Shown here: piece after piece, positions 8,409-24,813 of the stretch | Numbering within the stretch: position 1 is the first letter of the stretch | How the letters are laid out: the number at the start of each line of letters is the position of its first letter | Assembly: GCA_965261395.1 (NCBI GenBank) | Contig: OZ253462.1 | Span: 288,001-352,000 of the forward strand | Direction: 5' to 3' | DNA length: 64,000 bases | From: Candidatus Latescibacterota bacterium | Lineage (GTDB): Bacteria; Latescibacterota; UBA2968; UBA8231 | The notes under the pieces: generated by a model | Told to the model about the DNA's origin: nothing | The model's database searches: none | Seen by the model: only the letters and a program-made list of their open reading frames with translations | Made by a program: the position numbers and the translations under genes

Positions 8409-8444
8409 AAATATGTATCTGTCAACACAACCTGATTATAATTA

Positions 8445-9554: not shown

Positions 9555-9558
9555 CTAC

Positions 9559-10446: not shown

Positions 10447-10450
10447 TGGA

Positions 10451-10903: not shown

Positions 10904-10945
10904 TACCCGACCTCTTTCTGTTGGGGGAGAGCCATACCGCGCACG

Positions 10946-12118
10946 CTACCACCCCTTCCACGAGCCGTCGGCGTGCCGGTATTGGCGATAGGCCATCGGC
11001 TGGTAGGGCTGCGCGGCCAGATCGGCTTCCTTGACCTCAACGCCGAGGCCGGGCGCGTCGGAGAGGGCAATATGGCCACCCTCGACGTGCCAATCGTGCT
11101 CGACATAGCGGTCGTAGATCGAAAGCCAGAAGTGGTTGGTCTCCTGGATGAGGAAATTGCCCATCAGCGCATCGGCCTGCAGGGTAGCCGCCGTGCAGAG
11201 CGGGCCGCCGGCATTGTGCGGAGCCATCAGCATCTGTTCGGCTGCGGCAGCGCGGGCGATTTCAAGCAGATGCGCGATGCCGAAACAGTGGGTGAGATCC
11301 GGCTGCAAATAGGCGCAGGCGCGCTCGGCGATTAGGGGACGAAATTGTTCTAACGTAAAGAGCTTCTCGCCGGTGGCGATGGGAATGGGGCTTTTGCGCG
11401 TCACTTCTAAGAGGGCCTCCACCGAGCCGGTTTTGACTGGTTCTTCGAGCAGCAGCGGGCGGCTGGCCGCGGTGCGCCGCGCGAATTCAACGCTCATTTC
11501 GGGGGTGGGACTGCCGTGGGCGTCGAGGAGAATGTCGAACTCGGCACCCACTTCCCGCCGCATCGCTTCGACGCAAGCGACCGAGTGGTCGATAGCCGCG
11601 CCATCCATCGGCCACGTGCGACTCTCCAAGGGATTGCCTTTGACGCCGGCAAAGCCCTGGTCTTGGATCTGGCGCGCGCCCGCAGCGGCTTGTTCCGGCG
11701 CGGCAAAGCTGCCGCCGTTGCTATAGACGCGAATTTTGTCGCGCCGCCGGCCGCCCAGCAGCGTGTGGACCGGCACGCCCCAAGCTTTGCCGGCTAGGTC
11801 GTGCAGCGCGGCGTCAATGGCGGCGATGGCCGTGCCGAAGACCGGGCCGCCCTTCCACGGCAGGCGGTTTTGGATATCCTCGGTTAGCGCGCGGTAGTGG
11901 AGCGGGTCGCGGTCCAAGAGCAGTTCTTGCCACGCGGCGAGCGTGGCCTCGACCGAGGGCACCAGCCACTCGCCGCTGCCTTCGCCCCAGCCGCTGAGAC
12001 CTACATCCGTCTCGATCTTGAAGAAAAGCCACGTCTTGGAAGAACTGGCAATTAGCGCGGCGGTGTCTTGGCCCGTGGGGACGCTGAACTTATAGGTTTT
12101 GGTTGCGGTAATTTTCAC
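10946..12118 (-). CDS. Mandelate racemase/galactonate dehydratase-like enolase-superfamily enzyme
   Basis: GWGE, AIDAALHDLAGK, LDAHG, EEP, ATGEK, APHN, PGLGVE. Confidence 0.88.
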   Translation of the reverse strand: MKITATKTYKFSVPTGQDTAALIASSSKTWLFFKIETDVGLSGWGEGSGEWLVPSVEATLAAWQELLLDRDPLHYRALTEDIQNRLPWKGGPVFGTAIAAIDAALHDLAGKAWGVPVHTLLGGRRRDKIRVYSNGGSFAAPEQAAAGARQIQDQGFAGVKGNPLESRTWPMDGAAIDHSVACVEAMRREVGAEFDILLDAHGSPTPEMSVEFARRTAASRPLLLEEPVKTGSVEALLEVTRKSPIPIATGEKLFTLEQFRPLIAERACAYLQPDLTHCFGIAHLLEIARAAAAEQMLMAPHNAGGPLCTAATLQADALMGNFLIQETNHFWLSIYDRYVEHDWHVEGGHIALSDAPGLGVEVKEADLAAQPYQPMAYRQYRHADGSWKGW

Positions 12119-12206
12119 GGCCGCATCCTTTGGATTTTGATAAAGAGTGCGGATATAGTACCATTCAGGCTCGCCGCACGCAAACCTTCATCTCCTCGGA
12201 GGAATC

Positions 12207-13295
12207 ATGGCCCAACAACGCTTTCAGCGCACCGCGCCCAGCGACCTGCTCCGCGTCGGAGTGATCATCGGCCCCGGCGGCCACACCTTCAATATCTGGG
12301 GCGAAAAGATGAATCCCCCGCCCGGCGCCCTTCGCACGACGGGCATGATGATGACCTGCGCTTGGTGCCTCGATGCGGGGATGAGCCAGCGTTTTACGGA
12401 AAAGTACCCAGAGGTCCGCATGGTCGCCGACCCTCGGGACATGATCGGCCAAATCGACGGGGTCTATATCGACGACATCAACGCGATTTCGCTCTACCCC
12501 CTGTTGGCGCGGCCTTTTCTGGAAGCGGGCATTCCGACTTTTGTCAATCGGCCCTTTGCCACCTCTATGGCCAAGGGAAGGGAGATGGTGGAAACGGCCA
12601 CGCAACACGGCACGGCGCTGTTGACCGCCTCGACGTGGGAATTTTCCGAGAGCGCCGGCGACTTGCGCGCCAAGGCCGCGGACCTGCCCGACATCAAGGG
12701 CTATGTGGCGCACAACTCCATGAGCGACTACTACACTCACGGCCTGCACGGCGTCTGGTACATCCACTCGATTTTGCGCGACGAGATCGCCAAGGGACGG
12801 GGTCGGCTGCGCGCCGCTGCGTACCACACCCCCAATTGGCGGGTCCCCGGCGGGATGATCGCATACGAACACGAGAGTCCGACGCGCCCGTACTACGGGG
12901 CACTGCACATGAGCTCGGGTGCCGACGGCAACGCCTACATGCGGATCTTCGGCGACCACCGAGGCGATGCCGAGGGGCGGATTCCGGGGCGGCCCGGCTA
13001 CTTCATGTACAACGCTTGGAACGCGCTCCAACTCGGCATTCAGGAAATGTTTGAGACCGGCCAGTCGCCGGAGACGGGCGAGCAGCTTTTGGAGAAGCTG
13101 ATGATGTTTCTCCTGCCGTTCTATTCGGCATTGGAGCGCGGCGGCGCGCTAGTGCAGCGAGAGGAATTGGGCGACTGGGAGTTGCCGCCCCCGTCCGCCG
13201 TGCTCATGGAAGACGGCCTGCCGACCGACAGCGCCTTTGCATCTCCCTACACCCAAGCCCAGCTTGAAGAAGCAGCGCAGATGCTGGGTGGGTAA
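12207..13295 (+). CDS. Gfo/Idh/MocA-like oxidoreductase
   Basis: N-terminal RVGVIIG, PFLEAGIPTFVNRPFA, HGLH. Confidence 0.7.
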   Translation: MAQQRFQRTAPSDLLRVGVIIGPGGHTFNIWGEKMNPPPGALRTTGMMMTCAWCLDAGMSQRFTEKYPEVRMVADPRDMIGQIDGVYIDDINAISLYPLLARPFLEAGIPTFVNRPFATSMAKGREMVETATQHGTALLTASTWEFSESAGDLRAKAADLPDIKGYVAHNSMSDYYTHGLHGVWYIHSILRDEIAKGRGRLRAAAYHTPNWRVPGGMIAYEHESPTRPYYGALHMSSGADGNAYMRIFGDHRGDAEGRIPGRPGYFMYNAWNALQLGIQEMFETGQSPETGEQLLEKLMMFLLPFYSALERGGALVQREELGDWELPPPSAVLMEDGLPTDSAFASPYTQAQLEEAAQMLGG

Positions 13296-13315
13296 TTCCA
13301 GCGAAGAATGCATCC

Positions 13316-14863
13316 ATGAACAAGCGCAGACTACCCATCGGCATTCAGACCTTCCGCGAGGTCCGCGAAGATACCTGCTACTACGTCGATAAAACCGCCT
13401 ACATCCGCCGGCTGCTCGACGAGGGTAAGCACTACTTCCTGTCGCGCCCACGGCGCTTTGGCAAGAGCCTATTCTTGGACACGCTCAAGGAAGTGTTCGA
13501 AGGCAACGAACCGCTGTTCGCGGGGCTGGACATTCACGACCGCTGGGATTGGTCGGTGCGTCATCCGGTGCTGCGGCTCGACTTCAGCAGTGGCACCTAC
13601 CAGGGGCCGGACGACTTGCGGAAGGAAGTGGCGGCGCAATTAAACACCTTGGAGGCCGAAGCGGAGATCGTCCCGCGCGACGACGAAGCGCCCGTCCGCT
13701 TCCGCCACTTGATGAAGGTGCTGCACGAGCGCAGCGGTCAGCGCGTTGCGGTGCTGGTCGATGAGTACGACAAGCCGATTCTCGATGCACTGGAAGTACC
13801 GGAGGTCGCCCGCGCCAACCGCGACTTTCTGCGCGGCCTGTATTCGACCGTGAAGTTTGCCGACGCGCACATCCGCTTCACGTTCATCACCGGGGTGAGC
13901 AAGTTTTCCAAGGTCAGCCTGTTTTCCGGCCTCAACAACCTCACCGATATCACCCTCGAACCCGAATACTCGGCCCTCTGCGGCTATACCGACGCCGATC
14001 TAGACGCCGTGTTCGCCCCGGAGTTGCCCGGCTTAGACCGGGACCAGATCCGCGACTGGTACAACGGTTATAGCTGGCTCGGCGACGAGAAGGTGTACAA
14101 CCCTTTTGACATCCTCCTGCTGTTTCGCCGCCGCCGATTCGCCGCCTATTGGTTTGAAACCGGCACTCCGACGTTTCTGATCGAAACGCTGTTCAAGCGC
14201 CGCGTCAGTTCCCTAGCACTCGATGAGATGGTCGGCAGCGACGAACTACTATCGACTTTTGATGTCGATGACATCGCAACCGAGGCACTGCTGTTCCAGA
14301 CCGGCTACCTGACGATAACCGACGAGGAAGACGTTGGCGGCGAGCCCGTCTATCGCTTGGGCTATCCCAACCGGGAGGTACGGCAGAGCCTGAACCGCAG
14401 CCTGCTGCGCTACTTGGTGCGCGATTCAACGCGGCAGATGGCCAACAGCGTGCAACTCTACCGGCTGCTGGAGGCTAACGACTTCGCCGGGCTGGAGACC
14501 CTGTTCCACGCCTTTTTCGCCAGCATTCCCTACGAGTGGTATTCCAACAACGACATCGCTAATTACGAGGGCTACTACGCCAGCGTGTTCTACTCCTATT
14601 TCGCGGGGCTGGGGCTGGACATCACAGTGGAGGACAGCAGCAGCCACGGACGCTTAGACATGGCGGTTCTATTCAATGGCAACATCTATCTATTTGAGTT
14701 CAAGGTGGTCGAGATGGCGTCTGCGGGTGCGGCGATGGCGCAGTTGCAGGAGCGGCGCTACGCGGACAAGTACCGCGCCTTGGGCCAGCCGATTTACCTG
14801 ATTGGCGTGGAGTTCAGCAAGGATGAGCACAACCTAGCGGCGTTTGAGGTGGAACGCGCCTGA
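13316..14863 (+). CDS. AAA-ATPase-like plus PD-(D/E)XK nuclease protein
   Basis: LPIGIQTF, YYVDKT, SRPRRFGKSL Walker A, VLVDEYDKP, C-terminal GRLDM...IYLFEFK. Confidence 0.9.
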   Translation: MNKRRLPIGIQTFREVREDTCYYVDKTAYIRRLLDEGKHYFLSRPRRFGKSLFLDTLKEVFEGNEPLFAGLDIHDRWDWSVRHPVLRLDFSSGTYQGPDDLRKEVAAQLNTLEAEAEIVPRDDEAPVRFRHLMKVLHERSGQRVAVLVDEYDKPILDALEVPEVARANRDFLRGLYSTVKFADAHIRFTFITGVSKFSKVSLFSGLNNLTDITLEPEYSALCGYTDADLDAVFAPELPGLDRDQIRDWYNGYSWLGDEKVYNPFDILLLFRRRRFAAYWFETGTPTFLIETLFKRRVSSLALDEMVGSDELLSTFDVDDIATEALLFQTGYLTITDEEDVGGEPVYRLGYPNREVRQSLNRSLLRYLVRDSTRQMANSVQLYRLLEANDFAGLETLFHAFFASIPYEWYSNNDIANYEGYYASVFYSYFAGLGLDITVEDSSSHGRLDMAVLFNGNIYLFEFKVVEMASAGAAMAQLQERRYADKYRALGQPIYLIGVEFSKDEHNLAAFEVERA

Positions 14864-14870
14864 TATAGAT

Positions 14871-15818
14871 ATGCTGAACGAACTGCGCAAAATCCGCTAC
14901 GCCCGCTTCCGCCTAGAGATGACCGCAGCTAGCCAATTGCGGTTGCCTCCCTACAAGGGATCCACCTTTAGAGGGGCCTTTGGCCATACCTTCAAACAGC
15001 TAGTCTGTGTCAAGCGGGATCTGGACTGTTCCACCTGTCTGATCAGCGACCGGTGCGTGTATTACTATGTCTTCGAGACCCCGTCCAATAGTGAGGGAGA
15101 GAAGGACAGTCGCGGATATACCTTTGCGCCGCATCCTTTTGTGATTGAACCGCCCGAGGAAACGCGGGAAATCTACGAGCCGGGAGCCGAATTGCGGGTC
15201 GGACTGGTTTTGGTGGGGCGTGCCTTGGACTACCTGCCCTACTTCATCTACGCCTTTGAGGAAATGGGGCAGCGAGGGTTAGGGGCCGGGCGCGGCAAAG
15301 CTGCTTTGCAGCGAGTTATTGCCCTCGGTCCTGAGCCTAGCGACGATAGGTGCATCTATCAGACCGGTACTGGGCAACTGGAGCAGGACTATCCGGTCGG
15401 CGTTGGTGCGCCTGACACCGAGGCCGTTGGAACGCGGCTCCGGCTGCGGCTGCACACGCCGCTGCGGCTCAAGAACGAGGGGCGCTATACTCGCCAGCTT
15501 GACTTTTCTCTATTGGTGCGATCCTTGTTGCGGCGCGCTTCGGATCTGGCCCGCTTTCACTGCGGGGCTGAGCTGGACCTAGACTATCGGCAGTGGATTG
15601 AGCGGGCAGCCGGGGTATCGGCGGCGACGACACTGCGCTGGCACGACTGGGAGCGGTATTCGCAACGGCAGGATCGGAGAATGAAGTTAGGTGGCTTGGT
15701 CGGCGAAGTGGAATTCGCTGGTGAGTGGCAACCCTTCATGCCACTGTTGCGGCTGGGCGCGGATCTACACGTGGGCAAGGGGACGGGGTTTGGACTAGGA
15801 CGCTACGAGATTTTGTAA
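14871..15818 (+). CDS. cas6: CRISPR pre-crRNA endoribonuclease Cas6
   Basis: GSTFRGAFG, C-x(5)-CxxC-x(4)-C, WHDWERYSQRQ, C-terminal G-loop HVGKGTGFGLGRY. Confidence 0.92.
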   Translation: MLNELRKIRYARFRLEMTAASQLRLPPYKGSTFRGAFGHTFKQLVCVKRDLDCSTCLISDRCVYYYVFETPSNSEGEKDSRGYTFAPHPFVIEPPEETREIYEPGAELRVGLVLVGRALDYLPYFIYAFEEMGQRGLGAGRGKAALQRVIALGPEPSDDRCIYQTGTGQLEQDYPVGVGAPDTEAVGTRLRLRLHTPLRLKNEGRYTRQLDFSLLVRSLLRRASDLARFHCGAELDLDYRQWIERAAGVSAATTLRWHDWERYSQRQDRRMKLGGLVGEVEFAGEWQPFMPLLRLGADLHVGKGTGFGLGRYEIL

Positions 15819-15835
15819 AGGAGCAGGATGAAGAC

Positions 15836-17524
15836 ATGAAACACAAACTAATCGCTGTGATCGGCAACACACCGCAAGTTATGACAGAGACTTTCTGGGC
15901 ATTGCGTTTCCAACTCCATGTGCCCATTGATGAAGTATTTGTGATGACGACAACTATGGGTAAAGCAACCTGCCAGCAACGCCTTTTGGACGAAGGCCGA
16001 TTTGCAAAGATGTTGTCGGACTACGATATCGACCCCGATACGGCCAAGTTCGACGCCGATCATATCCGTGTATTTAAAGATGCCGAGGGCAATTTTTTAG
16101 ACGATATCCGCACCTCTGATGATAATCGCCTAGCCAGGAATCAACTTTTCCGCTGGATTGAGGATTGGACCCAGAAGGATCATGTCGCTTTACACTGCTC
16201 GCTTGCAGGCGGACGTAAGTCAATGGGATACTTGCTCGGTGCTGCTATTCAATTTTTTGGCCGCCCACAAGATCGCCTGTATCATGCGCTGGTTACACCG
16301 CCAGAGATTGAAATGAATCGCGATTTTTTCTTTCCACCTGTTCGTGAAACGCAAATCCCCACGTCAGACGGGCAACACATTTCTACTGCTGATGTGCGTA
16401 TTGAGTTGGCAGAGTTACCCTATGTATCGGTAAGAGATATATCCGTATTTGGCGATGAAAGCTACGACCGAATTCTACAGAGAACACAAGAAGAGGTGAG
16501 GCGTATTCCACGTCTAAGAGCAGAAAACAAGCGATTGAGAGAAACATCGAGTAATGCCGGTGGATTGATCGGAAACAGTGCTGCTATGCGGAAAACCAAA
16601 GAACAGATTCGGCAAGCTGCTGATGCAGATGATGCAACCGTATTGCTCTTGGGTGAAACGGGAACGGGAAAAGAACGCGCAGGTGAAGAACTGCATGAGC
16701 AGAGCACGAGAAAAGATCGACCATTCATACCGATTAACTGTAGTGCATTCCCGGATACACTTTTAGAGGCAGAGCTATTCGGTGCGACACGAGGTACTTA
16801 TACCGGACAAGCCGGGCCGCGTAAGGGTGCGTTTCGCATGGCCGAAGGCGGTATCCTTTTTCTCGATGAAATAGGAGAATTATCACGTGATGGGCAGGCG
16901 AGGCTGTTGCGCGTATTACAAGAAAAGAAAATGCGCGCGGTTGGCAGCGATGAACCGGAGAAAGACATTGATGTACGCATTGTTGCGGCGACCAATCGCG
17001 ACTTAGAATCCATGGTTCGAGAAGGGGCTTTCCGAGAGGACCTGTTGTATCGCCTCAATGCTTTGACCATTTACATGCCACCGTTGCGAGAACTACGCGA
17101 AGATATACCGGAGCTAATCGACCTGTTTTGTGAACAGTTTAATGAAAAATACAAACGCAATGTTGTGGGCTTTGATGCCTCAGCTATAGACGCTATGTGC
17201 CGCTATACCTGGCCGGGTAACGTGCGCGAGCTTGAAAATGAAGTTCAGCGTATCGTCATTGCCGCGCCTCCGGGTGCATTTCGAGTACACAAGGAAAACT
17301 TAGCCAAGCATATTATTGAATCGACAGATTTAGACACGGGTAGTGGTACGCTCAAAGAACAAGTGGCACAGTTTGAGAAGCAAAAAATTGAGGAAGCGTT
17401 GGCGCAAACTCAGGGCGAAAGAGGATCTGCCGCAGAGATACTGGGTATCGACCCTACAACGCTGGGTAGAAAAGCTGAAAAGTATGGCTTATCTCTAAAA
17501 AAGAGTCATAAGGATCGTGAGTGA
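15836..17524 (+). CDS. CARF (NE0113/Sso2081-like) domain fused to sigma54 enhancer-binding AAA+ domain and Fis-type HTH
   Basis: N-term GNTPQVMTET and CSLAGGRKSMG CARF motifs; coiled-coil LRAENKRLR; GETGTGKE; ELFG..GTYTGQ; LFLDEIGE; AATNRDL; FREDLLYRLN; WPGNVRELEN; AAEILGI HTH. Confidence 0.9.
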   Translation: MKHKLIAVIGNTPQVMTETFWALRFQLHVPIDEVFVMTTTMGKATCQQRLLDEGRFAKMLSDYDIDPDTAKFDADHIRVFKDAEGNFLDDIRTSDDNRLARNQLFRWIEDWTQKDHVALHCSLAGGRKSMGYLLGAAIQFFGRPQDRLYHALVTPPEIEMNRDFFFPPVRETQIPTSDGQHISTADVRIELAELPYVSVRDISVFGDESYDRILQRTQEEVRRIPRLRAENKRLRETSSNAGGLIGNSAAMRKTKEQIRQAADADDATVLLLGETGTGKERAGEELHEQSTRKDRPFIPINCSAFPDTLLEAELFGATRGTYTGQAGPRKGAFRMAEGGILFLDEIGELSRDGQARLLRVLQEKKMRAVGSDEPEKDIDVRIVAATNRDLESMVREGAFREDLLYRLNALTIYMPPLRELREDIPELIDLFCEQFNEKYKRNVVGFDASAIDAMCRYTWPGNVRELENEVQRIVIAAPPGAFRVHKENLAKHIIESTDLDTGSGTLKEQVAQFEKQKIEEALAQTQGERGSAAEILGIDPTTLGRKAEKYGLSLKKSHKDRE

Positions 17525-17528
17525 ATGG

Positions 17529-17562
17529 CTGCAACCTTGCAGGGATTTCTGCAGAATTGCAT
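17529..17562. promoter_or_regulatory. Tandem palindromic upstream activator sequences (TGCA-N4-TGCA x2)
   Basis: CTGCAACCTTGCAG (17529-17542) and CTGCAGAATTGCAT (17549-17562), 20 bp apart, about 130-150 bp upstream of the predicted sigma54 start. Confidence 0.65.
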
Positions 17563-17608
17563 GACTGAACATGTTGTCGTCCATTTCCTGTTTCAGGAAA
17601 ACATCGCA

Positions 17609-17621
17609 CAACCTATTGTTT
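17609..17621. promoter_or_regulatory. IHF-like binding site
   Basis: CAACCTATTGTTT versus consensus YAANNNNTTGATW (one mismatch), between the UAS pair and the promoter. Confidence 0.45.
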
Positions 17622-17660
17622 TTCTTGATCTTTGAGAAAATTCGAAGGTTTTTTTGTGTT

Positions 17661-17675
17661 TGGCACGGGGATTGC
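17661..17675 (+). promoter_or_regulatory. Sigma54 (-24/-12) promoter
   Basis: TGGCACGGGGATTGC = TGGCAC-N5-TTGC with correct GG-N10-GC spacing; directly downstream of a bEBP gene and upstream of a GGAGG RBS. Confidence 0.85.
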
Positions 17676-17740
17676 GACTGTATAAGCAAAAGGTGAACAG
17701 TTTCAGTAAATCCGCAGCAAACATTAAATGGAGGAACAAC

Positions 17741-18091
17741 ATGAACACTCTAATCAATCAGGGGGATGAGCAATATTATTCTCAGGCCGGTTTCTGGAAT
17801 AAGTTGCGCAACTTCGCACGTACCGCGGGTCGGGAAGTCGTCGAGCATGCCCTGTCGCTCTACTACACCGCACAGGATCCTAACACACCGGCCTGGGCCA
17901 AGACGGTTATCTACGGAGTGTTGGGGTACTTCATCCTGCCGGTCGATCTAATTCCCGACCTGATCCCAGTCGTCGGCTTCAGCGACGATTTGGCTGCGTT
18001 TGTCGCCGCACTCGCTACCGTGGGGATCCATGTGACGCCTGAGATTAAAAACCGCGCCAAGAAGAAAGCAGCCGAGTGGTTTGGTAAGTGA
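17741..18091 (+). CDS. DUF1232/YkvA family small membrane protein
   Basis: TPAWAK..IYGVLGYFILPVDLIPDLIPVVGFSDD signature; GGAGG RBS. Confidence 0.9.
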   Translation: MNTLINQGDEQYYSQAGFWNKLRNFARTAGREVVEHALSLYYTAQDPNTPAWAKTVIYGVLGYFILPVDLIPDLIPVVGFSDDLAAFVAALATVGIHVTPEIKNRAKKKAAEWFGK

Positions 18092-18206
18092 GCAATGCAA
18101 GCAGAAGAGTTTTTAAGCATATTTATGAGTTTGGGTTGGCTCTGTACGTGGGCTAAGAGACGGGTTTGGGCTGGGATGCTACGGGATTTTATACAGGAGA
18201 AGGTTG

Positions 18207-20540
18207 ATGGTATCAAGAGACGCCCTAGTTGTCGGGGCCTTGCTGCACGATATAGGCAAATTTGAATTCAGGACATCGGACCGACGTACGCGCCACACCA
18301 CCTACGGGGATTTTTTTGTAGGCAAGTATCTGAGTCGTTTCCGCTGCTTGGAACCGATTCGGGAGGAGGTTCGCCGGTTGGTCGCCCATCACCACGATAG
18401 TGAGTTGGGTGATCCCTTTCTGCGGGAGGCCGACCATCTAGCGGCGGCGGATCGGCAGGTGGACGGCAGTCCCGAGACCCTGCGGTCGCTGGTGAGTATC
18501 CTGACCGCCGTGAACATTGGGAAGGGATCCTCACCACAGGATGTGCATCGGTATGCGCCGGGGCCGGTGGATTTTGCCAACCCCTTTCCCGAACACGTAT
18601 CAGGGGTCACGCCCGTCGAGTGGAAGCCCGACCGGGACCAAGCGCGAGACGAGCACGCCCGCGCTTGGGAGCAATTTTGCGCCGAGATCGGCACAATGCC
18701 CGATGGCGAGTTGGCGAGTTGGATTGAGACGTTCTTGGCGGTGGCTCGCAAGCATCTGAGTCGCGTGGCCTCGGCTGCCTACAAATCGCATCCAGATATT
18801 TCGCTCTACGATCACGCCCGCTCGGTGGCCGCCATTGCGGTGTGCCTACACGAGGCACATCAGCAAGCGGAGCCTTTCCTATTGATTCAGGGGGATATAT
18901 CGGGCGTTCAGTCCTTTCTCTATAAACTGGCTAGCCCAGCCGAAGAGGGAGGGACGAAAAATACCGCCAAGCGTTTACGGGGACGGTCGCTATTTCTAGT
19001 GCTACTAGCCGAGACCGTAGCACGTTATTACTTGCGTAAATTGAATTTGCCTCCGACCAACCTGCTGTACTGTGGCGGGGGGCACTTTTCGATCCTTGCG
19101 CCCCATACTGACGAGCTGAAAACCAAGCTGGCCGAGGCCGAAGAGCAGGTCAACCGCTGGTTGATCGACCAGCACCGGGGCGATCTGGCACTAGTGAGCG
19201 CAGCCACCTCGGCCGATAAGGAGTTGCTGGCCAATTTCCCTCGTTTGATGCAGCAATCGGGCTACGAGCTGGGCCGGGCCAAGCGGCAGAAATTCCGCTC
19301 CGTACTGGATGAGCGACTGTTCGCGTTGCCGGACTATGACCAGACCATGGACGTCTGCCCGGTATGCCAAGCTGATTTCGTCAAAGGCTCCGGGAAGACC
19401 TGTATGACCTGTAAACAACATGTGGAGACCGGGAGCCAAATCGTCCGGGCAGAGTTCTTGGTGCGGTTTGAAGGGGAAAATTTGGACGGGGAATTCGCCC
19501 AATTAGGTTTTGCTTGGGAATTGGCTGCCGACTGGAAAGAGGTTGTCCAGCTAGTAGGGGAAACCCCAGCCGAGCGCGTACATGTGGAACGGCTCAACCG
19601 CAGTGATTTCCTGACTCAGGCCGGCGCGGCCTTGGGTACGCGACATAGCCTCAGCTTCGGGTTCCGGCCACTCGGCCAGTACGCCCCCATTGACGAGCAA
19701 GAGAAGGGGCCGCTGGACTTTGAACACTTGGCCCAAATCAATAGTGAAAAATACCCGCTATTGGGAGTGGTACGCCTCGATGTCGATGCGCTGGGCGCAG
19801 TATTCGCTTCGGGGTTGGGGGAACAGCGATCTCTATCGCGCACAGCCACTTTGAGCCGCGAATTGGAGACCTTCTTCTCTGGCTATGTCAACACCTTGGC
19901 CAAAGATCATTATATGTACATCACCTACGCCGGAGGCGACGACCTGTTCGCCGTAGGCTCTTGGATCAACGCCCTTGAATTCAGTCGCGCCTTGCGGCGG
20001 GACTTTGGTCAGTTCAGCGGTGGCAATCCCAATCTGACCTTTTCCGGCGGTCTGTTTTTTTGCAAGCCGGATTTCCCCATCGGACGGGCTGCCGAAGCCG
20101 CTGGCAAACTGGAGAAGCGGGCCAAGGATTTCCCAGACAAGAATGCCGCCTGCCTGTTTGACGAAGAGGTCTCTTGGGAACGGCTCGACAAGTTGCTCGC
20201 CTTTGGCGACGAACTACTGTACTTGGTGACCGAAGCGGACCCAAACAACCGCTTGCCCCGCTCGTTTGTGCATCGTCTGTTGAGCTTGGGAGCCGAGCGC
20301 CGGTTGGCCCAAGAAGAAGGAAAATTAAAAGCCGAAATAAAAACTCAAATACAGCTCAAATATCTCGTAGCCCGACGCGGGGCCACCAGCAAGGCGATCA
20401 GCGACAATCAGGAGATGGAGGCAGACCGACGCAGAATAGGTGCCTTGGGACGACTGGTCAACGAGCCGGAATTGATGCGCCAGATCGCCGTACCTGCATC
20501 ATACGTACTGTACAAGACGCGAAACCTCAACACAGAGTAG
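18207..20540 (+). CDS. cas10: Type III-A Cas10/Csm1
   Basis: LLHDIGK HD motif, DISLYDH, GDISGVQ, CPVC/CMTC zinc finger, YAGGDDL palm motif (GGDD at 19932-19943). Confidence 0.97.
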   Translation: MVSRDALVVGALLHDIGKFEFRTSDRRTRHTTYGDFFVGKYLSRFRCLEPIREEVRRLVAHHHDSELGDPFLREADHLAAADRQVDGSPETLRSLVSILTAVNIGKGSSPQDVHRYAPGPVDFANPFPEHVSGVTPVEWKPDRDQARDEHARAWEQFCAEIGTMPDGELASWIETFLAVARKHLSRVASAAYKSHPDISLYDHARSVAAIAVCLHEAHQQAEPFLLIQGDISGVQSFLYKLASPAEEGGTKNTAKRLRGRSLFLVLLAETVARYYLRKLNLPPTNLLYCGGGHFSILAPHTDELKTKLAEAEEQVNRWLIDQHRGDLALVSAATSADKELLANFPRLMQQSGYELGRAKRQKFRSVLDERLFALPDYDQTMDVCPVCQADFVKGSGKTCMTCKQHVETGSQIVRAEFLVRFEGENLDGEFAQLGFAWELAADWKEVVQLVGETPAERVHVERLNRSDFLTQAGAALGTRHSLSFGFRPLGQYAPIDEQEKGPLDFEHLAQINSEKYPLLGVVRLDVDALGAVFASGLGEQRSLSRTATLSRELETFFSGYVNTLAKDHYMYITYAGGDDLFAVGSWINALEFSRALRRDFGQFSGGNPNLTFSGGLFFCKPDFPIGRAAEAAGKLEKRAKDFPDKNAACLFDEEVSWERLDKLLAFGDELLYLVTEADPNNRLPRSFVHRLLSLGAERRLAQEEGKLKAEIKTQIQLKYLVARRGATSKAISDNQEMEADRRRIGALGRLVNEPELMRQIAVPASYVLYKTRNLNTE

Positions 20541-20549
20541 GAGACCATC

Positions 20550-21008
20550 ATGGCTAACGAACACAGAGGAAGTGGGGGTGGAGGAGCCGACCGTCGGAGG
20601 GACCAGACCACCAGGGCTAACAAACAGCCCATTAATTTGGGCACCATTACTCCCCAGGAACTGAACCGCCGGGGTGAAGAGTTGGGCAAGGAACTGGCAA
20701 GGAACATTAAGGCCAACCAGATCCGCAATATCTACGGTGCGGTCCAGCACATTCGCGTCCGCGCGAGTCGGCCCCAACCCGATACCGAAGATATCAATCG
20801 CCGCCTGATCTTCCTCAAGCCAAAACTGGCCTATGCCAGTGGTCGGCAAAATAATTTGAGGGGCTTACGGGATGTATTGGTGGAGGCGATTGATAGCGTA
20901 GTACGAAGCGAAGACCCCCAAAAAGCGCAAAAAGCGCGGGATAACTTTTTCATCCTGATGGAATCTATCGTGGCCTACCACAAATTCTACGGCGGCAAAG
21001 ATTCGTAA
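20550..21008 (+). CDS. csm2: Type III-A small subunit Csm2
   Basis: NQIRNIY, LKPKLAYASGR, ESIVAYHKF. Confidence 0.95.
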   Translation: MANEHRGSGGGGADRRRDQTTRANKQPINLGTITPQELNRRGEELGKELARNIKANQIRNIYGAVQHIRVRASRPQPDTEDINRRLIFLKPKLAYASGRQNNLRGLRDVLVEAIDSVVRSEDPQKAQKARDNFFILMESIVAYHKFYGGKDS

Positions 21009-21030
21009 ACCATAGGAGAACAGTACCATT

Positions 21031-21852
21031 ATGGCTCAATTTATTGGCAATATCATTATGCGCGGCAAAATCGAGTGCCTCACCGGTCTGCACATTGGGG
21101 CGGGCAAGGACACTGCCGAGATCGGCGGAGTCGATAGCCCGGTAGTGCGCGACCCCCATAGCCGCCGGCCCTATATCCCTGGCTCTTCCCTCAAAGGCAA
21201 GATGCGTTCCATGCTGGAGTTCGCTACGGGCAAAGTGAAGGATGGCAAGGTGCATACTTGTAACGAGGCCCGCTGCGAGGTGTGTCGGCCTTTTGGGTCG
21301 TCGGCCGCAGATGCGCGCAAATGCGGTCCCACGCGGCTGTTGGTAAGGGACGCCTATCCCGACGAGCAGACCCAAAGCATGTGGGAGAATCTGAGTACCG
21401 ACTTACTCTACGCGGAGATGAAATCGGAAAACTTTTTGGATCGCATCACTTCGGCGGCCAATCCCCGTTTCATCGAGCGGGTGGTCAAGGGATCGTGCTT
21501 CAATTTGGAAATGATCTATGGAGTCTATCAGGTGGACGGCGTCAACGACCTCGACTTTTTCGCCCATGTAGTGACCGCGCTGCGCCTGCTTGAAGACGGC
21601 ACCTTGGGCGGCAACGGCAGCCGAGGCTACGGCCAGATACGCCTGAAGCTGGCCGACCCTGTTTTCTTAAGTGGGCAAGACTACTGCGAAGGTAGCGATG
21701 CCTGGAAACAAGCCCGTCAGTGGCCAGCCGACGAAGCCATTGTGCGGGGCATGGGTGACTTCTCGTTGAACCGAGAGGATGCTACCTGCCAATCATGGGA
21801 TGAGATAATGAAGTCGCCAGAGGACGAGGTGGGCAAAGAGGGGCATGGATGA
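21031..21852 (+). CDS. csm3: Type III-A backbone RAMP Csm3
   Basis: TGLHIG, IGGVDSPVVRDP (catalytic Asp present), PYIPGSSLKGKMRS, LGGNGSRGYG. Confidence 0.95.
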   Translation: MAQFIGNIIMRGKIECLTGLHIGAGKDTAEIGGVDSPVVRDPHSRRPYIPGSSLKGKMRSMLEFATGKVKDGKVHTCNEARCEVCRPFGSSAADARKCGPTRLLVRDAYPDEQTQSMWENLSTDLLYAEMKSENFLDRITSAANPRFIERVVKGSCFNLEMIYGVYQVDGVNDLDFFAHVVTALRLLEDGTLGGNGSRGYGQIRLKLADPVFLSGQDYCEGSDAWKQARQWPADEAIVRGMGDFSLNREDATCQSWDEIMKSPEDEVGKEGHG

Positions 21853-22814
21853 AAGCGATCTATCTGCAATCCCGAGGGGCCTATCGCAACGAGCTGCATT
21901 CGGACACCCTATTCGGACTGATTTGCTGGGCGATCCGTCAGGTCTTTTCGGAGGCGAGGTTGGTGGAGTTGCTAAAAGCCTTTTATGCTGGCCAGCCCCC
22001 CTTCCTGCTTAGCTCAGCTTTCCCCTGCGCCAAAGACGGCACCGCCGTCTGGAAGCCCTTTTTGCCTCGTCCGTTGCTTCCACCTCCGGCGCCTGTGGAA
22101 GATCTGAGCCCCGAAGAAGCTCAGCGGCTCAAACGGTACAAGCGGCTCCGCTATATTCCCGCCGATCACTTCAATCAATTTTTGCAGGGCGACTATTCGG
22201 AGGGTTCGTATTATGAGTCCGATGTCTGGGAAAAAACTACGGTGCCGATTCCCCGGCGTACTGACCGCTTGCATGGCACCATTGATCGATTGAGCGGCAC
22301 TACCGATGGAGAGGGCACACTGTTCTCCGAGCCCGAATACCGGACGGACGGACTCTACTTCTTGCTCGACGGGGAAGAAGCCGAACTAGTGGAAAACGCG
22401 CTCCGTTTTCTGGAGGATTTCGGCTGGGGTGGAGGCAATAGCGTGGGCTATGGCCACTTTGCTGCGACCGTAGGTGAAAGCCCGCTCGCCGTCGCCGTCT
22501 CTGCGCCGGATCGCTTTATCACCCTGTCCCTGTACCATCCTCGATCCGACGAACTCGCGCATTTCAAAACTGGGGAAGCGTGGTACGAGTTGGTGGTTCG
22601 CAAGGGCAAGGTGGGCGGCCACTTCCTCCAAACGGGCGACTTTTGGAAGCGCTCGGTATTGATGTTTGCTCCCGGCTCGACCTTCCCAGCGATGGCGGAA
22701 AAGCAAGTGTACGGACGCAATCCCATTGTAAAGGGGCGGAAGGACGGGCTACCCTTCGACGTGCAGCAATTCGGCTATGCCCTTGCCGTGGGCATGAAAA
22801 CGGCCAGAGAGTAG
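21849..22814 (+). CDS. csm4: Type III-A RAMP Csm4
   Basis: HSDTLFG, LSSAFP, GWGGGNSVGYGHF, TLSLYHP, MFAPGSTF. Confidence 0.93.
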   Translation: MKAIYLQSRGAYRNELHSDTLFGLICWAIRQVFSEARLVELLKAFYAGQPPFLLSSAFPCAKDGTAVWKPFLPRPLLPPPAPVEDLSPEEAQRLKRYKRLRYIPADHFNQFLQGDYSEGSYYESDVWEKTTVPIPRRTDRLHGTIDRLSGTTDGEGTLFSEPEYRTDGLYFLLDGEEAELVENALRFLEDFGWGGGNSVGYGHFAATVGESPLAVAVSAPDRFITLSLYHPRSDELAHFKTGEAWYELVVRKGKVGGHFLQTGDFWKRSVLMFAPGSTFPAMAEKQVYGRNPIVKGRKDGLPFDVQQFGYALAVGMKTARE

Positions 22815-22819
22815 AAATT

Positions 22820-24562
22820 ATGGAACGAAGAGTGCAGTGTCTGTCGCCGGTACACATTGGCACGGGTAAGGAACTAGAACCTTTCGACTATATCGTGGAT
22901 GGCCAACGCTATATTCGCGTCCACTTGGATGCAGTCCTCGAACGGATGACGACCGAACAAGTGGACGATCTGGCTGCCTGGGTGAGCGAGCGGGCTGACC
23001 AGATGGTAGAACTGGGAAGGAAGCAAAGCGATGATATCCGGCGGGAGATGCAGCTATCGAACTTCCCCGGCGCTGATGTCGCGTTACGGGAGGCTCTTCG
23101 AACGGACTCAGCCCTAGCTCGCTACCACGGCAATAAGGGATTTGATCGCAATTTGCAGGTGCGAGAGCAGGTCAAAGATGCCGATGAGACGCCTCTCATT
23201 CCGGGCAGTTCGCTCAAGGGTGCTCTGCGTACGGCCCTCGCTTTTGCCGCTTTGGAGGAAATGGAACTGGCCGAGCGGGAGGCGTTGAGACAGTCGCTTG
23301 AACGACGACTGAACGAGAGAGGCCCTCGTCTGCAAGAACGTATCGGCCAAGAGATAGAACAGGCCGTCTTCCGCTGTGGGAAGGAGCAGAGGGGGCGCAC
23401 TAGCTATGGAGACATCCACTACGACTTGATGAGGGCAGTCTCCGTCTCGGACACGTACGATGCCCAAGCGGAATTGATCGTGCCGCAGATATACACCTTT
23501 GTCGAGTCGCGCACCCGGGAGGGAAATACCAGACTCGCCGCCCAAGCGCCGCTTATCGTCGAAGCGCACGCACCGGGCAATATCTTCAGTCTGCGTCTGC
23601 GGATTGACGGTGGTCTCCTGCGGGCGATTAGTCAGAATGGTCGCAGAGGCGAGTGGATCAACTTTGAGCAACGGGTGCAGCGGGCCTTTGGCTCTGAGGT
23701 GGCGCGGCTGTTGCCGGGAGCATCGGACGAGCAAGTGGAGCAGGCCGTGGTAGGCCGGCTCGAAGCCGCGGCGCGGAGCTTTGCCAAGGCAATCGTGTCG
23801 GCTGAACAGGGCTGGGAGGAAGCACACGGGCACAGTTCCCGCGATCTAAAGGACTTTTACAATCGGCTAGACGACCTGATAGGAAAGGGATTGGTGCCGC
23901 TGCGGTTGGGCTGGGGCAGTCACTTTATGGCCACTACTTTGTTGCTGGCGCTCAAAGAGGATGCGGGCTGGCGTCCTATACTGGAAAGGTGCTTCCGGGC
24001 GTTTGATATAGGCGTTCCTCCAGGACGACATAGAGATAGGGGCAGAGATTCGGAGCGCCAAATTGAGCTCGACGACTTCCCCCGCTCCCGTCGGCTGGTT
24101 GCGGCCGGAAGGAGGCCTGTAGCCCCCTTGGGCTGGATCGCATTAGTGCCTACAGTGGAAGAGTTGCCCGGACCGCTGGTGGAAAAGGAGCGGCTGCTCG
24201 CCCGAACTCAGGAGAGCGAACCTAGGCGAGGGGAAAGGCCACAGGCGGACAGATATAGAGATGGGCGCGGCGGGCGCAGCGAGCCGGGACCGGCTCCACG
24301 CCCCGAACGACCTCTCCCGCAGATCAAGCTTCCGAAGCCTGCCTCGAAACCGCCGCCCCGCCAAGGGTCTCGGCCGGGCGACCGAGTCAATGTGGAAATC
24401 GTGGCCAACGACAACGCTCAGGTTACGGTAAAAGTGCTGGACGGTCAGGGCGAGGAGGTGCGGTTCCGGCAGCCTTACTATCCGGGCCGACCTGGAGAAA
24501 AGAGAAAGATGAAGGTCAGAGCAGTGGACTCCCAAGGCAAGATCACGCAGGTGGCCCCTTGA
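22820..24562 (+). CDS. csm5: Type III-A RAMP Csm5 with C-terminal extension
   Basis: LSPVHIGTG, IPGSSLKGALRTA, LRLGWGS, PLGW; ATG at 22820 (the ORF track start is too far upstream). Confidence 0.92.
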   Translation: MERRVQCLSPVHIGTGKELEPFDYIVDGQRYIRVHLDAVLERMTTEQVDDLAAWVSERADQMVELGRKQSDDIRREMQLSNFPGADVALREALRTDSALARYHGNKGFDRNLQVREQVKDADETPLIPGSSLKGALRTALAFAALEEMELAEREALRQSLERRLNERGPRLQERIGQEIEQAVFRCGKEQRGRTSYGDIHYDLMRAVSVSDTYDAQAELIVPQIYTFVESRTREGNTRLAAQAPLIVEAHAPGNIFSLRLRIDGGLLRAISQNGRRGEWINFEQRVQRAFGSEVARLLPGASDEQVEQAVVGRLEAAARSFAKAIVSAEQGWEEAHGHSSRDLKDFYNRLDDLIGKGLVPLRLGWGSHFMATTLLLALKEDAGWRPILERCFRAFDIGVPPGRHRDRGRDSERQIELDDFPRSRRLVAAGRRPVAPLGWIALVPTVEELPGPLVEKERLLARTQESEPRRGERPQADRYRDGRGGRSEPGPAPRPERPLPQIKLPKPASKPPPRQGSRPGDRVNVEIVANDNAQVTVKVLDGQGEEVRFRQPYYPGRPGEKRKMKVRAVDSQGKITQVAP

Positions 24563-24579
24563 ACGGACAAAGGAAGACA

Positions 24580-24732: not shown

Positions 24733-24813
24733 TCGAGTATCGGTATCCAACAGCAGACCTGATCGGTAGAGGGTTAAATCGAATATACACCGATCAATGA
24801 TAGGAGACTTATC

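Follow-up and report, generated by a model that had tools for sequence, protein, structure and literature searches.

Gene Content of the Locus

The window analyzed here is a 64-kb stretch (positions 288,001-352,000) of contig OZ253462.1 of a Candidatus Latescibacterota bacterium (assembly GCA_965261395.1, genome of 6.55 Mb); all coordinates below are those of the window. It contains a type III-A CRISPR-Cas locus, whose genes are encoded on the plus strand. The cas6 gene (14872-15818; Pfam CRISPR_Cas6, 2.5e-21) is separated by an 18-bp gap from the downstream gene of a 562-aa activator (15836-17524), and the two genes probably share one transcript. The activator is a fusion of a CARF domain (Cas_NE0113, PF09623, 7.4e-36), a sigma-54 AAA+ domain (Sigma54_activat, PF00158, 2e-61) and a C-terminal Fis-type helix-turn-helix (HTH) domain (HTH_8, PF02954, 2e-11). 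Beyond the intergenic region discussed below lies a gene encoding a 116-aa DUF1232 protein (17741-18091; Pfam DUF1232, 2.3e-13), preceded by GGAGG at 17730-17734 and followed by the effector genes cas10/csm1, csm2, csm3, csm4, and csm5 (18204-24562; TIGR02578, 549.9 bits, and the Csm2-Csm5 models). As read from its sequence, Cas10 keeps both the HD and the GGDD motifs. Profile matches identified a second CARF protein (Cas_APE2256), cas1 and cas2 further downstream (24814-27358), and a CRISPR array with 64 reported copies of a 37-nt repeat follows (27552 to approximately 32400, plus strand). No rtcB or rtcA gene was found beside the activator gene among the ORFs scanned (10946-27358), its neighbors being cas6, the DUF1232 gene and the csm genes.

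Predicted Promoter Elements in the Intergenic Region

A sequence-only reading of this DNA had proposed a complete sigma-54 promoter directly after the activator gene, pointing into the csm operon. All the motifs that it named are present where it had placed them, and the direction (plus strand) was correct; however, the first gene 3’ of the promoter is the DUF1232 gene (17741-18091), and cas10-csm come only after it. Sigma-54 promoters have GG at -24 and GC at -12, with transcription starting about 12 nt after the -12 GC. The -24/-12 element TGGCACGGGGATTGC (17661-17675, plus strand) matches TGGCAC-N5-TTGC, and, as the C of its -12 GC is at 17675, the start is predicted near 17687, which puts the centers of the two putative upstream activator sites (UAS) at -151.5 and -131.5. 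These sites, the distal TGCAACCTTGCA (17530-17541) and the proximal TGCAGAATTGCA (17550-17561), both on the plus strand, have the form TGCA-N4-TGCA and are 20 bp apart, start to start; they differ from the family consensus GTGCA-N4-TGCAC at the outer positions (CTGCA...TGCAG and CTGCA...TGCAT). Sites of sigma-54 activators usually lie about 80-200 bp upstream, and an intervening IHF site is common, though not obligatory. An IHF-like site is present here as well: CAACCTATTGTTT (17609-17621, center at approximately -72) reads AAACAATAGGTTG on the minus strand and matches the IHF consensus WATCAANNNNTTR at eight of the nine specified positions, with an A-run on its 5’ side. Other sigma-54 promoters of the phylum contain AATCAANNNNTT with matching orientation and spacing.

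The genome provides the protein partners of such a promoter. The rpoN gene, whose presence the sequence-only reading presupposed, was identified (TIGR02395, 435.5 bits against a cut-off of 277), together with 21 full sigma-54 AAA+ domains and three genes of the HU/IHF family, which match the IHF models best but score below their curated cut-offs. Among 151 genomes of the phylum, rpoN is present in 146, including all 11 that carry the fusion gene. No sigma-70-like site was found in the intergenic region by a simple scan.

Taken singly, the motifs are weak evidence. The -24/-12 match alone says little, because TGGCAC-N5-TTGC has 23 exact matches genome-wide against about 15 expected from base composition and, in the window, one exact match and five matches with up to one mismatch against 5.6 expected. 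TGCA-N4-TGCA occurs three times in the window (0.93 expected), a number reached in 10 of 100 shuffles. It is the combination of the motifs, together with their conservation, that is strong. There are 37 TGCA-N4-TGCA sites in the genome, and only the two at the locus lie within 400 bp of each other; these two alone are followed within 320 bp by a -24/-12-like element. The genome scan suggested in the sequence-only reading thus found no other pair of this kind upstream of a -24/-12 element, and no further regulon members were detected in the genome, whether the cores had to be exact or pairs with up to one mismatch were accepted (two pairs against 2.5 expected, of which only the one at the locus has a promoter).

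An additional palindrome, TTTCCTG-TTT-CAGGAAA (17584-17600, not assigned to a strand), had been noted between the UAS and the IHF-like site. It is indeed present, with a predicted fold of -6.6 kcal/mol in the window copy, but only its left arm is conserved, the right arm being replaced by an A-run in relatives. As a conserved operator it was rejected, and it is probably not a functional palindrome.

Conservation Across Related Loci and the Phylum

The motifs were expected to recur in homologous loci, and they do. Eleven full-length related loci from Candidatus Latescibacterota metagenome-assembled genomes (L002-L012; n = 12 with the window) were compared, and all 11 carry the module after the gene of a CARF-AAA+-HTH activator; as these loci are kin and partly come from the same genomes as the 151-genome survey, their counts are not independent of each other. 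All 11 have the -24/-12 element, where the alignment is at its most conserved (0.98). Averaged over columns, conservation stands at about 0.5 on the 5’ side of the proximal UAS, at 0.72-0.98 between that site and -12, with its maximum on TTTGGCACG, and at 0.4-0.58 after -12; a profile that drops so sharply after -12 looks like the footprint expected of a promoter. The proximal UAS aligns in all 12 loci, two of which (L005 and L006) have the variant GGCA-N4-TGCC, and sites at the position of the distal UAS were seen in L002 and L007.

In five of the 11 loci a second copy of the module was found between cas6 and the DUF1232 gene, with a pair of sites 20-21 bp apart, an IHF-like core, and TGGCACGCGGATTGC. 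In the alignments of first and of second copies alike, the core AAC-N3-TTG-N-TTT varies little or not at all. These repeated modules suggest that the activator has a small regulon, reiterated inside its own locus. In L006-L012, too, the DUF1232 gene comes after the module or after its second copy, and the 5’ UTR of this gene is conserved, while in L003 the same module precedes genes of an FGE-sulfatase and an ankyrin protein, not cas genes.

The fusion gene occurs in 11 of the 151 phylum genomes, and each of these has an IHF-core-plus-promoter pattern within about 3 kb downstream. The pattern matched 27 times across the 151 genomes, the reversed control pattern not once. Of the 16 matches beside a fusion gene, 14 have enhancer-like sites, as against none of the 11 elsewhere (0/11), so that the tie between these sites and the fusion is exclusive.

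The intergenic block could also be read as mainly a terminator or 3’ end belonging to the activator transcript, a small RNA, or the boundary of a recombining or mobile element spread between loci, its -24/-12 element being incidental. Just 5’ of the -24 element there is indeed a weak AU-rich hairpin followed by a U-run (17627-17656, plus strand; RNA fold of -7.4 kcal/mol, z -1.4 in the window), which is stronger in some relatives (-10.6 in L007, -11.2 in L012); the activator genes are mosaics, showing recombination in and around the region, and a contig from an RNA library (X19) crosses the block. Such a reading does not account for the -24 and -12 positions being the most conserved columns, nor for conservation ending right after -12. 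Moreover, L002 has lost the hairpin, and the second-copy modules have the UAS, the IHF core and the -24/-12 element but no hairpin; no Rfam family matched within 17300-18300, and the block is unique in the genome. We regard this explanation as extremely improbable and take the block for a promoter. The hairpin, which was not called by a terminator scan of the region, may act as a leaky terminator for the activator transcript.

The X19 contig just mentioned (710 nt), the only RNA-library contig over the promoter region, comes from a relative with about 95% identity and corresponds to 17550-18240; it starts upstream of the proximal UAS and spans the promoter. If it is RNA, it represents read-through from upstream; alternatively, it may be carried-over DNA. 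The RNA libraries were analyzed as assembled contigs, which cannot show transcription starts. Parts of the DUF1232 gene are covered by contigs of X19, of a second RNA library (X20), and of X18, which is an RNA library by guess. The lack of X19 coverage over the activator gene is uninformative, since the activator of the relative may be too divergent to match.

ATPase and DNA-Binding Domains of the Activator

The AAA+ domain of the activator has the Walker A (GETGTGKE) and Walker B (LFLDEI) motifs, and its closest solved relatives are FleQ, ZraR, NtrC, and NifA. The loop that contacts sigma-54 (L1) reads GTYTGQ instead of GAFTGA. The activators of the homologous loci form two clades, only 48-49% identical to each other, and the module is kept despite this divergence: in the clade of the window the loop is GAYTGQ in most members and GAYSGQ in L007, and in the second clade it is GAFTGA, GAFTDA, GAFTNA, NAFTGA, or NAFTNA. 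The aromatic-Thr pair of the loop is kept in 11 of the 12 activators, and Tyr may be able to stand in for Phe in this motif.

The mosaic structure of the activator genes is seen in pairs such as L003 and L009, whose HTH domains are 78% identical with AAA+ domains at only 38%, and L004 and L010 (79% and 39%, respectively). In these comparisons the type of the C-terminal HTH appears to follow the promoter layout and not the AAA+ clade, a pattern that physical linkage could also explain. Co-variation between the recognition helix and the UAS variants was also considered and dropped, as L005 and L007 have the same helix, with GGCA-N4-TGCC sites in the former and TGCA sites in the latter.

With 21 full sigma-54 AAA+ domains in the genome and an L1 loop that departs from GAFTGA in the fusion protein, it is conceivable that the promoter is real but served by another sigma-54 activator, the fusion acting elsewhere or only as a repressor. 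We consider this quite improbable. In all 11 genomes with the fusion the module comes after the fusion gene, and, among the IHF-plus-sigma-54 promoters of the phylum sample, TGCA-N4-TGCA sites are confined to those beside the fusion (14/16 against 0/11); HTH type and promoter layout change together across the AAA+ clades, and second-clade relatives whose loops are GAFTGA or nearly so have the same module. The adjacent activator is therefore the preferred candidate for the regulator of this promoter.

The CARF Domain and Its Probable Signal

The CARF domain exceeds the cut-off of its family model (TIGR02584, 176.5 bits against 80.65). Its predicted fold (pLDDT 89, pTM 0.85) has as top Foldseek matches the CARF domain of Cad1 with bound cA4 or cA6 and the Crn1 proteins Sis0455 and Sso2081 (E from 2e-6 to 1e-5); the match to Csa3 is weak (2wte, rank 42), and a sequence search against solved structures gave nothing below E = 0.27. 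Residues S122, G125, G126, R127, and K128 are invariant in alignments of 65 and of 38 sequences, R127 and K128 being the basic residues after strand 4. Judged by the profile and the fold model, the sensor is a canonical CARF domain (NE0113/TIGR02584, with a Crn1/Cad1-like fold), unlike that of RtcR. As the CARF domain is canonical and the neighboring Cas10 keeps the GGDD cyclase motif, cyclic oligoadenylate from this Cas10 is the most probable signal, and the activator likely responds to the messenger made by its own system.

The main competing view accepts the promoter and replaces the signal: the CARF domain would sense RNA with a 2’,3’-cyclic phosphate, or its main role would be ring-nuclease activity or the docking of Cas proteins, and there would be no feedback loop through cyclic oligoadenylate. 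The precedent is RtcR, which has the same three-domain layout and was reported to bind cyclic-phosphate tRNA halves, with no response to oligoadenylates in the accounts given by the relevant passages (PMC7790460, PMC9650030), its CARF domain being bound by RtcA and RtcB (PMC9650030). Furthermore, TIGR02584 is a ring nuclease family according to NCBIfam, and the Crn1 ring nucleases are among the best fold matches. The similarity to RtcR is nevertheless restricted to the ATPase and DNA-binding part: the RtcR equivalog model (NF038308) reaches 293 bits, below its cut-off of 650, and its alignment is limited to residues 258-562 of the submitted ORF (AAA+ and HTH), while the CARF domain passes the cut-off of the NE0113 family. 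The basic residues after strand 4, invariant in the activator, are mostly missing in RtcR according to passages of PMC4012209. In addition, the structures that match the fold best are of CARF domains in complex with cA4 or cA6, and the activator gene always lies in a type III locus whose Cas10 has a palm domain. We consider a signal of another kind unlikely, although it is the alternative with the most in its favor, and keep cyclic oligoadenylate as the working assumption.

Proposed Circuit

The sequence-only reading had taken the intergenic motifs for a sigma-54 promoter with UAS and an IHF-like site, targeted by the adjacent CARF-containing activator, and this proposal is supported by the presence of rpoN, the conservation in 11 of 11 loci, the genome scan, and the distribution of the enhancer-like sites (14/16 against 0/11). 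We conclude, with a probability of roughly 80%, that 17525-17740 is a sigma-54-dependent, enhancer-activated promoter that belongs to the upstream activator and is part of the feedback circuit proposed here. In this circuit, dimers of the Fis-type HTH would bind the two TGCA-N4-TGCA sites (-151.5 and -131.5), and an IHF-like protein would bend the DNA at the site near -72, so that the AAA+ ring could contact sigma-54 RNA polymerase held in the closed state on TGGCAC-N5-TTGC. ATP hydrolysis would then open the promoter, with a presumed start near 17687, and the transcript would include DUF1232, then cas10 and csm2-5, and possibly the second CARF gene with cas1 and cas2 as well. Gating of the AAA+ domain would fall to the N-terminal CARF domain, as in RtcR, with cyclic oligoadenylate as the presumed ligand and activation as the presumed effect. 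If cyclic oligoadenylate is the signal, the circuit would amplify type III immunity by positive feedback, with read-through out of the cas6-activator operon supplying basal expression.

A broader interpretation, which we put forward tentatively and with somewhat less than even confidence, is that the activator and its promoter module form a portable cassette converting an alarm into transcription. A CARF-sigma-54 activator that binds cyclic oligoadenylate would carry its own promoter module, through which the messenger drives the genes of the effector complex (positive feedback) and a small DUF1232 membrane protein acting as an induced immune effector. Recombination in Latescibacterota would have shuffled this cassette among III-A, III-B, and cold-shock-domain/RAMP-fusion systems, with both the sensor half and the HTH-plus-promoter half moving independently of the ATPase core. 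The only paper found to mention both DUF1232 and CRISPR is, judged by title and abstract, unrelated.

Comparison With Known Systems

The outputs of type III signaling are mostly enzymes switched by cyclic oligoadenylate, such as nucleases, proteases, pores, and deaminases, and to our knowledge transcriptional outputs are few, namely Csa3 and CalpL/CalpS. If correct, the circuit described here would be a third route from the cyclic oligoadenylate messenger to transcription and a clear instance of self-amplified CRISPR expression upon detection of an invader. With four defined elements in 216 bp, the promoter module offers a concrete handle on this hypothesis. A description of a CARF-sigma-54 activator fusion in type III loci was not found in the literature searched, though the 2020 classification of CARF proteins may catalogue such a fusion. 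The CARF domain of RtcR has long been puzzling, and the finding ties RtcR to a CRISPR-embedded relative of like layout.

RtcR of E. coli and Salmonella is the closest parallel. It shares the CARF-sigma-54 AAA+-HTH order, a promoter with UAS, IHF site, and -24/-12 element, and a CARF domain that holds the AAA+ domain off until the signal arrives (PMC9650030, PMC7790460, PMC4012209); such a promoter precedes rtcBA in E. coli, and RtcR without its CARF domain is reported to be constitutively active (PMC9650030, PMC7790460). The differences are threefold. First, the CARF domain of RtcR is divergent, in the passages cited above mostly without the basic residue after strand 4 and without an oligoadenylate response, whereas that of the activator is canonical and NE0113/Crn1-like. 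Second, RtcR targets RNA repair genes, and the module here precedes DUF1232 and type III cas genes. Third, rtcR is transcribed divergently from its target, while the activator gene here shares the strand of its target and immediately precedes it. The locus may thus represent a new variant of the RtcR-type circuit.

Predicted sigma-54 activators with an RtcR-like CARF sensor also head defense operons next to CoCoNuT and restriction-modification systems, for which a feedback loop has been proposed (PMC11090510, PMC4012209). There, the proposed signal is cyclic-phosphate RNA, there is no association with Cas10, and the passages concerned contain no promoter or enhancer architecture for these activators. 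Csa3, which consists of a CARF domain and a winged HTH, is cA4-responsive and likewise couples cyclic oligoadenylate to transcription of CRISPR genes (PMC8844856), but it lacks AAA+, makes no use of sigma-54, and is found mainly in archaeal type I-A systems; in the activator described here, an AAA+ domain lies between CARF and HTH_8. The Nla28-dependent promoter of a CRISPR-associated operon in Myxococcus xanthus similarly combines a sigma-54 promoter with tandem activator sites upstream of cas genes (PMC9765219), although Nla28 is starvation-responsive, has no CARF domain, and is encoded outside the CRISPR locus. Finally, CalpL-CalpT-CalpS turns the type III cyclic oligoadenylate signal into a transcriptional response (PMC11229360), but, as described there, by a SAVED-Lon protease that frees an ECF-type sigma factor instead of a sigma-54 activator.

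Gene Context of the Promoter Module

The activator gene (15836-17524) encodes a 562-aa fusion of a CARF domain (Cas_NE0113/TIGR02584), a sigma-54 AAA+ domain, an AAA lid and a Fis-type HTH_8 domain, and begins 18 bp after cas6 (14872-15818). The intergenic region with the promoter (17525-17740) is followed by the gene of a 116-aa DUF1232 protein (17741-18091) with a GGAGG ribosome-binding site, cas10/csm1 (18204-20540, HD and GGDD motifs present), csm2, csm3, csm4, and csm5 (ending at 24562), the gene of a second CARF protein, Cas_APE2256 (24814-25950), cas1 and cas2 (ending at 27358), and a CRISPR array starting at 27552, with 64 reported copies of a 37-nt repeat. Two neighboring repeat-spacer units of the array (29632-29785) are 99% identical, which indicates a duplicated spacer. 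Given the gene order from 17741 onward, the promoter points into DUF1232 first and into the csm genes after it, a circumstance that the sequence-only reading had missed.

Promoter Architecture and Uniqueness

All elements proposed in that reading are present in the sequence: two TGCA-N4-TGCA putative enhancer sites, distal (17530-17541, centered at -151.5) and proximal (17550-17561, centered at -131.5), 20 bp apart from start to start; an IHF-like 13-mer, CAACCTATTGTTT on the plus strand (17609-17621); and a sigma-54 -24/-12 element, TGGCACGGGGATTGC (17661-17675). Counting from the C of the -12 GC at 17675, transcription is predicted to start at about 17687. The palindrome TTTCCTG-TTT-CAGGAAA (17584-17600) is also present but is not conserved as such, only its left arm, TTTCCTGTTTC (17584-17594), being highly conserved (0.9 in the 12-region alignment of the window and its relatives); this arm may belong to the IHF footprint as its A/T-flanked portion, or some other factor may bind there. 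In simple scans of positions 14500-18400, the intergenic region gave no sigma-70-like site, and no plus-strand terminator-like site appeared between the promoter and cas10.

The individual motifs are not rare, and it is their combination that is distinctive. The window has one exact match to the -24/-12 consensus (five with one mismatch permitted, 5.6 expected), and the whole genome (6.55 Mb, 59% G+C) has 23, where about 15 are expected from base composition. Three TGCA-N4-TGCA sites lie in the window, where 0.93 would be expected, and this number was also reached by 10 of 100 shuffles. A genome-wide scan for further paired sites before -24/-12 elements, suggested in the sequence-only reading as a way to define a regulon, returned the studied pair alone: among the 37 TGCA-N4-TGCA sites of the genome, only the window's two lie less than 400 bp from one another, and only these two precede a -24/-12-like element within 320 bp. 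When up to one mismatch was allowed (1808 sites), two pairs with a spacing of 18-22 bp were found (2.5 expected), only the studied one having a downstream promoter. The 216-bp intergenic block (17525-17740) has one copy in the genome.

Conservation in Related Loci

A search with the CARF part showed that about 100 protein clusters share the CARF/AAA+/HTH architecture. Scanning one genome per species yielded 79 loci, from which the examined set, L002-L012, was taken as those with a match spanning the whole fusion; outside it are L013, whose contig ends after residue 206, and L014-L080, with matches to the CARF part only. All 11 examined loci come from MAGs labeled Candidatus Latescibacterota or Latescibacteria, and their activators form two clades, with 79-83% and 48-49% identity to the window protein. 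TGGCAC-N5-TTGC was found in all 11, 138-280 bp beyond the activator stop codon. When the 12 regions were aligned with the -24/-12 element as the anchor, mean column conservation stood at about 0.5 ahead of the proximal site, rose to 0.72-0.98 between this site and the -12 element, with the maximum on TTTGGCACG, and fell to 0.58, then about 0.4, immediately past the -12 element. Judged from the alignment, this profile is the one expected of a promoter whose functional DNA would end at the start site.

The family consensus of the enhancer site is a 14-bp palindrome, GTGCA-N4-TGCAC; the window's two sites retain the TGCA cores and differ in the outer bases. Three layouts were distinguished, with the pair spacing being 19-21 bp throughout: a pair at about -152 and -132 (window, L002, and L007); a pair at about -221/-202 with a single site at about -131 (L004, L008, L010, L011, and L012); and a pair at about -280/-259 with a single site at -122, accompanied by a promoter-proximal 10-bp deletion (L003 and L009). 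In L005 and L006 the proximal position reads GGCA-N4-TGCC. Co-variation of the recognition helix with this site, as a symmetrical change of specificity, was considered and rejected, since one and the same helix occurs in L005 and in L007, a locus with TGCA sites.

Genes Downstream of the Module

An ORF scan of L002-L012 (79/117 selected ORFs, most minus-strand and far-upstream ones being omitted) placed cas genes behind the module in 10 of the 11 relatives. The genes following the module are cas6, cas10/csm1, csm2, and RAMP genes of type III-A in L005; cas6, DUF1232, RAMP, and Cmr2-type Cas10 genes in L006 and L007; cas6, DUF1232, an IS transposase, Cas10 palm, and RAMP in L010; cas6, DUF1232, a Cas_APE2256 CARF gene, Cas10 palm, and RAMP in L011; cas6, DUF1232, Cas10 palm, and RAMPs in L012; cas6, DUF1232, and a cold-shock-domain/RAMP fusion of 845 aa in L008; DUF1232, EcsC, and an 875-aa cold-shock-domain/RAMP fusion in L009; a DUF1232-like start, seen in the DNA alignment only, and an 872-aa cold-shock-domain protein in L002; and cas6, followed by the end of the locus, in L004. 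In L003 the module precedes genes for an FGE-sulfatase, an ankyrin protein, and another FGE-sulfatase (8059-11917), yet cas6 and an AAA-ATPase/PDDEXK gene remain upstream of the activator. A gene with AAA-ATPase_like and PDDEXK_9 domains stands immediately before cas6 and the activator where cas6 is upstream (window, 13316-14863; L003, 3171-5018; L009, 2592-4466). The cold-shock-domain proteins of L002 (8346-10964), L008 (9968-12505), and L009 (9088-11715), 845-875 aa long with this domain at the N-terminus and with RAMP matches in L008 and L009, occupy the place of the window's Cas10-Csm genes and may be an unusual fused type III effector.

DUF1232 was recognized by Pfam in 8 of the 12 loci, window included, and in all eight it is the first gene after the module or after its second copy (17741-18091 in the window; L006, 9276-9626; L007, 9071-9421; L008, 9287-9739; L009, 8013-8363; L010, 9440-9790; L011, 8844-9284; L012, 9033-9482); according to the alignment, it is probably the first gene in L002 as well. 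This small YkvA-like protein is probably a membrane protein and may serve these type III systems as an effector induced at the transcriptional level. Only one paper was found that mentions DUF1232 as well as CRISPR, and, judging from title and abstract, it is unrelated.

A second copy of the module lies between cas6 and DUF1232 in five of the 11 loci (L006, 9065-9212; L007, 8859-9006; L008, 9178-9325; L010, 9228-9375; L012, 8918-9065), with a site pair at 20-21 bp, the same IHF-like core, and TGGCACGCGGATTGC. The order there is activator, module 1, cas6, module 2, DUF1232, effector genes, while the window has cas6 upstream of the activator and one module only. In the alignment, the upstream half of the window module is like module 1 and its 5' UTR like module 2, and it looks like a recombinant of the two.

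The Activator Protein

Walker A and Walker B are intact, and the nearest solved relatives of the AAA+ part are FleQ, ZraR, NtrC, and NifA. In the loop that contacts sigma-54, the window protein has GTYTGQ, most members of its clade have GAYTGQ, and the second clade has GAFTGA or variants differing by one residue; tyrosine would be tolerated in this loop in place of phenylalanine. The RtcR model matched the AAA+/HTH part alone, far under its cut-off, and a sequence search of the CARF part against solved structures gave no close relative. The best Foldseek matches of a structural model of residues 1-225 (pLDDT 89, pTM 0.85) were the Cad1 CARF in structures with cA4 or cA6 and two Crn1 ring nucleases, Sis0455 and Sso2081, in structures with cA4 (E-values 2e-6 to 1e-5; TM-scores by query 0.42-0.56, by target 0.49-0.74). 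Two alignments, of 65 and of 38 sequences, show no variation in the motif S-x-A-G-G-R-K that follows strand 4; a basic position there marks nucleotide-binding CARFs and is mostly absent from RtcR, according to PMC4012209.

Across the initial 150 CARF residues, all 11 relatives have 74-87% identity to the window protein; in the second clade, identity drops to 28-30% in the remaining CARF and linker and to 38-42% in the AAA+ domain. The C-terminal HTH part is 78% identical between L003 and L009 (AAA+ domain, 38%) and 79% between L004 and L010 (AAA+ domain, 39%). By these comparisons the activator genes are mosaics, with the C-terminal HTH type crossing clades. Both HTH-sharing pairs also share promoter layouts, so the DNA-binding gene end and the adjoining promoter moved together; such movement is predicted by functional coupling, but by plain physical linkage as well.

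IHF-Like Sites and Phylum-Wide Survey

In both alignments, the core AAC-N3-TTG-N-TTT shows little or no variation. On the minus strand, 17609-17621 reads AAACAATAGGTTG, with an A-run on its 5' side, and agrees at 8 of 9 specified positions with the E. coli IHF consensus, WATCAANNNNTTR. The combination of the IHF-like core with the promoter element 25-42 bp behind it was matched 27 times, in 21 of 151 phylum genomes, whereas the reversed control pattern gave none. Matches unrelated to the fusion mostly show the canonical AATCAANNNNTT on the minus strand, with TGGCAC following at 25-42 bp (loci L084, L089, L094-L096, L100, L103, and L104 of other genomes). IHF-type sites so placed and oriented are thus a general feature of the phylum's sigma-54 promoters, and IHF-assisted promoters of this class seem common in Latescibacterota.

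The fusion, called where a long open frame matched with an E-value between 5e-164 and 6e-80, was found in 11 of the 151 genomes, including that of the window, and six more had weaker CARF-only or other matches. In each of the 11 carriers the pattern occurs no farther than about 3 kb downstream of the fusion, with 16 matches altogether. Enhancer-like sites occur within 300 bp upstream in 14 of these 16, the two others being GGCA variants, versus none of the 11 matches elsewhere. The carriers are kin and overlap to a large extent with the organisms of L002-L012; a formal test would make too much of the association, and the new information is in the negative set. The distribution speaks for the proposal that the module is the cognate target of the adjacent activator, with predicted binding to the paired sites.

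Sigma-54 Machinery and Transcript Contigs

The genome encodes RpoN (435.5 bits, cut-off 277), on which the sequence-only reading depended, together with 21 full sigma-54 AAA+ domains and three HU/IHF-family proteins, for which IHF models outscore HU models yet stay below curated cut-offs. rpoN was detected in 146 of the 151 genomes, including all 11 fusion carriers.

The RNA comparison used assembled contigs, which show neither a start nor its absence. A 710-nt contig from metatranscriptome X19, from a relative about 95% identical, covers 17550-18240 and begins ahead of the proximal enhancer site; contigs from runs X20 (17733-18004) and X18 (17938-18200, labeled RNA only by guess) fall inside DUF1232. 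Should the X19 contig be RNA, it would mean read-through over the promoter, consistent with a basal Cas10-Csm supply by the upstream operon and with the weak hairpin with a U-run at 17627-17656 (RNA fold -7.4 kcal/mol, z -1.4). This hairpin is stronger in L007 and L012 and lost in L002. A contig from run X2 bridges 17593 to 17718 at depth 4, versus 13-17 in its surroundings, omitting 124 bases with the IHF-like site, the -24/-12 element, and the predicted start; its source may be a relative or a variant without the promoter core.

Comparison with Known Systems

Full-text searching found no description, in the papers covered, of the fusion in type III loci or of its promoter; the 2020 CARF classification may catalogue the fusion. 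That classification reportedly places RtcR and Crn1 in one CARF clade. One recent type III survey deferred transcriptional regulators to a later study (PMC11229360), and another restricted ring-nuclease candidates to at most 250 residues (PMC12409355). All computational tests run agree with a sigma-54 promoter that would be the target of the adjacent CARF activator; we infer which ligand is sensed and in which direction it acts, as well as where transcription starts and what DUF1232 does. As the regulatory module is well defined, a proposed circuit from cyclic oligoadenylate to sigma-54 is open to direct testing.

The window module has the textbook architecture of an enhancer-dependent sigma-54 promoter, the same as at rtcBA (upstream sites, IHF site, and -24/-12 element), whose activator RtcR is constitutively active without its CARF domain (PMC9650030 and PMC7790460). 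RtcR-like CARF activators are predicted to head restriction and CoCoNuT operons (PMC4012209, PMC11090510), and in Myxococcus a sigma-54 promoter precedes a CRISPR-associated operon, its activator being CARF-less (PMC9765219). Unlike in these cases, the sensor here is a canonical CARF of the ring-nuclease-like NE0113 family in type III loci, and the target is a type III effector operon with DUF1232. The system is a variation on the design known from RtcR, not a system of a new kind.
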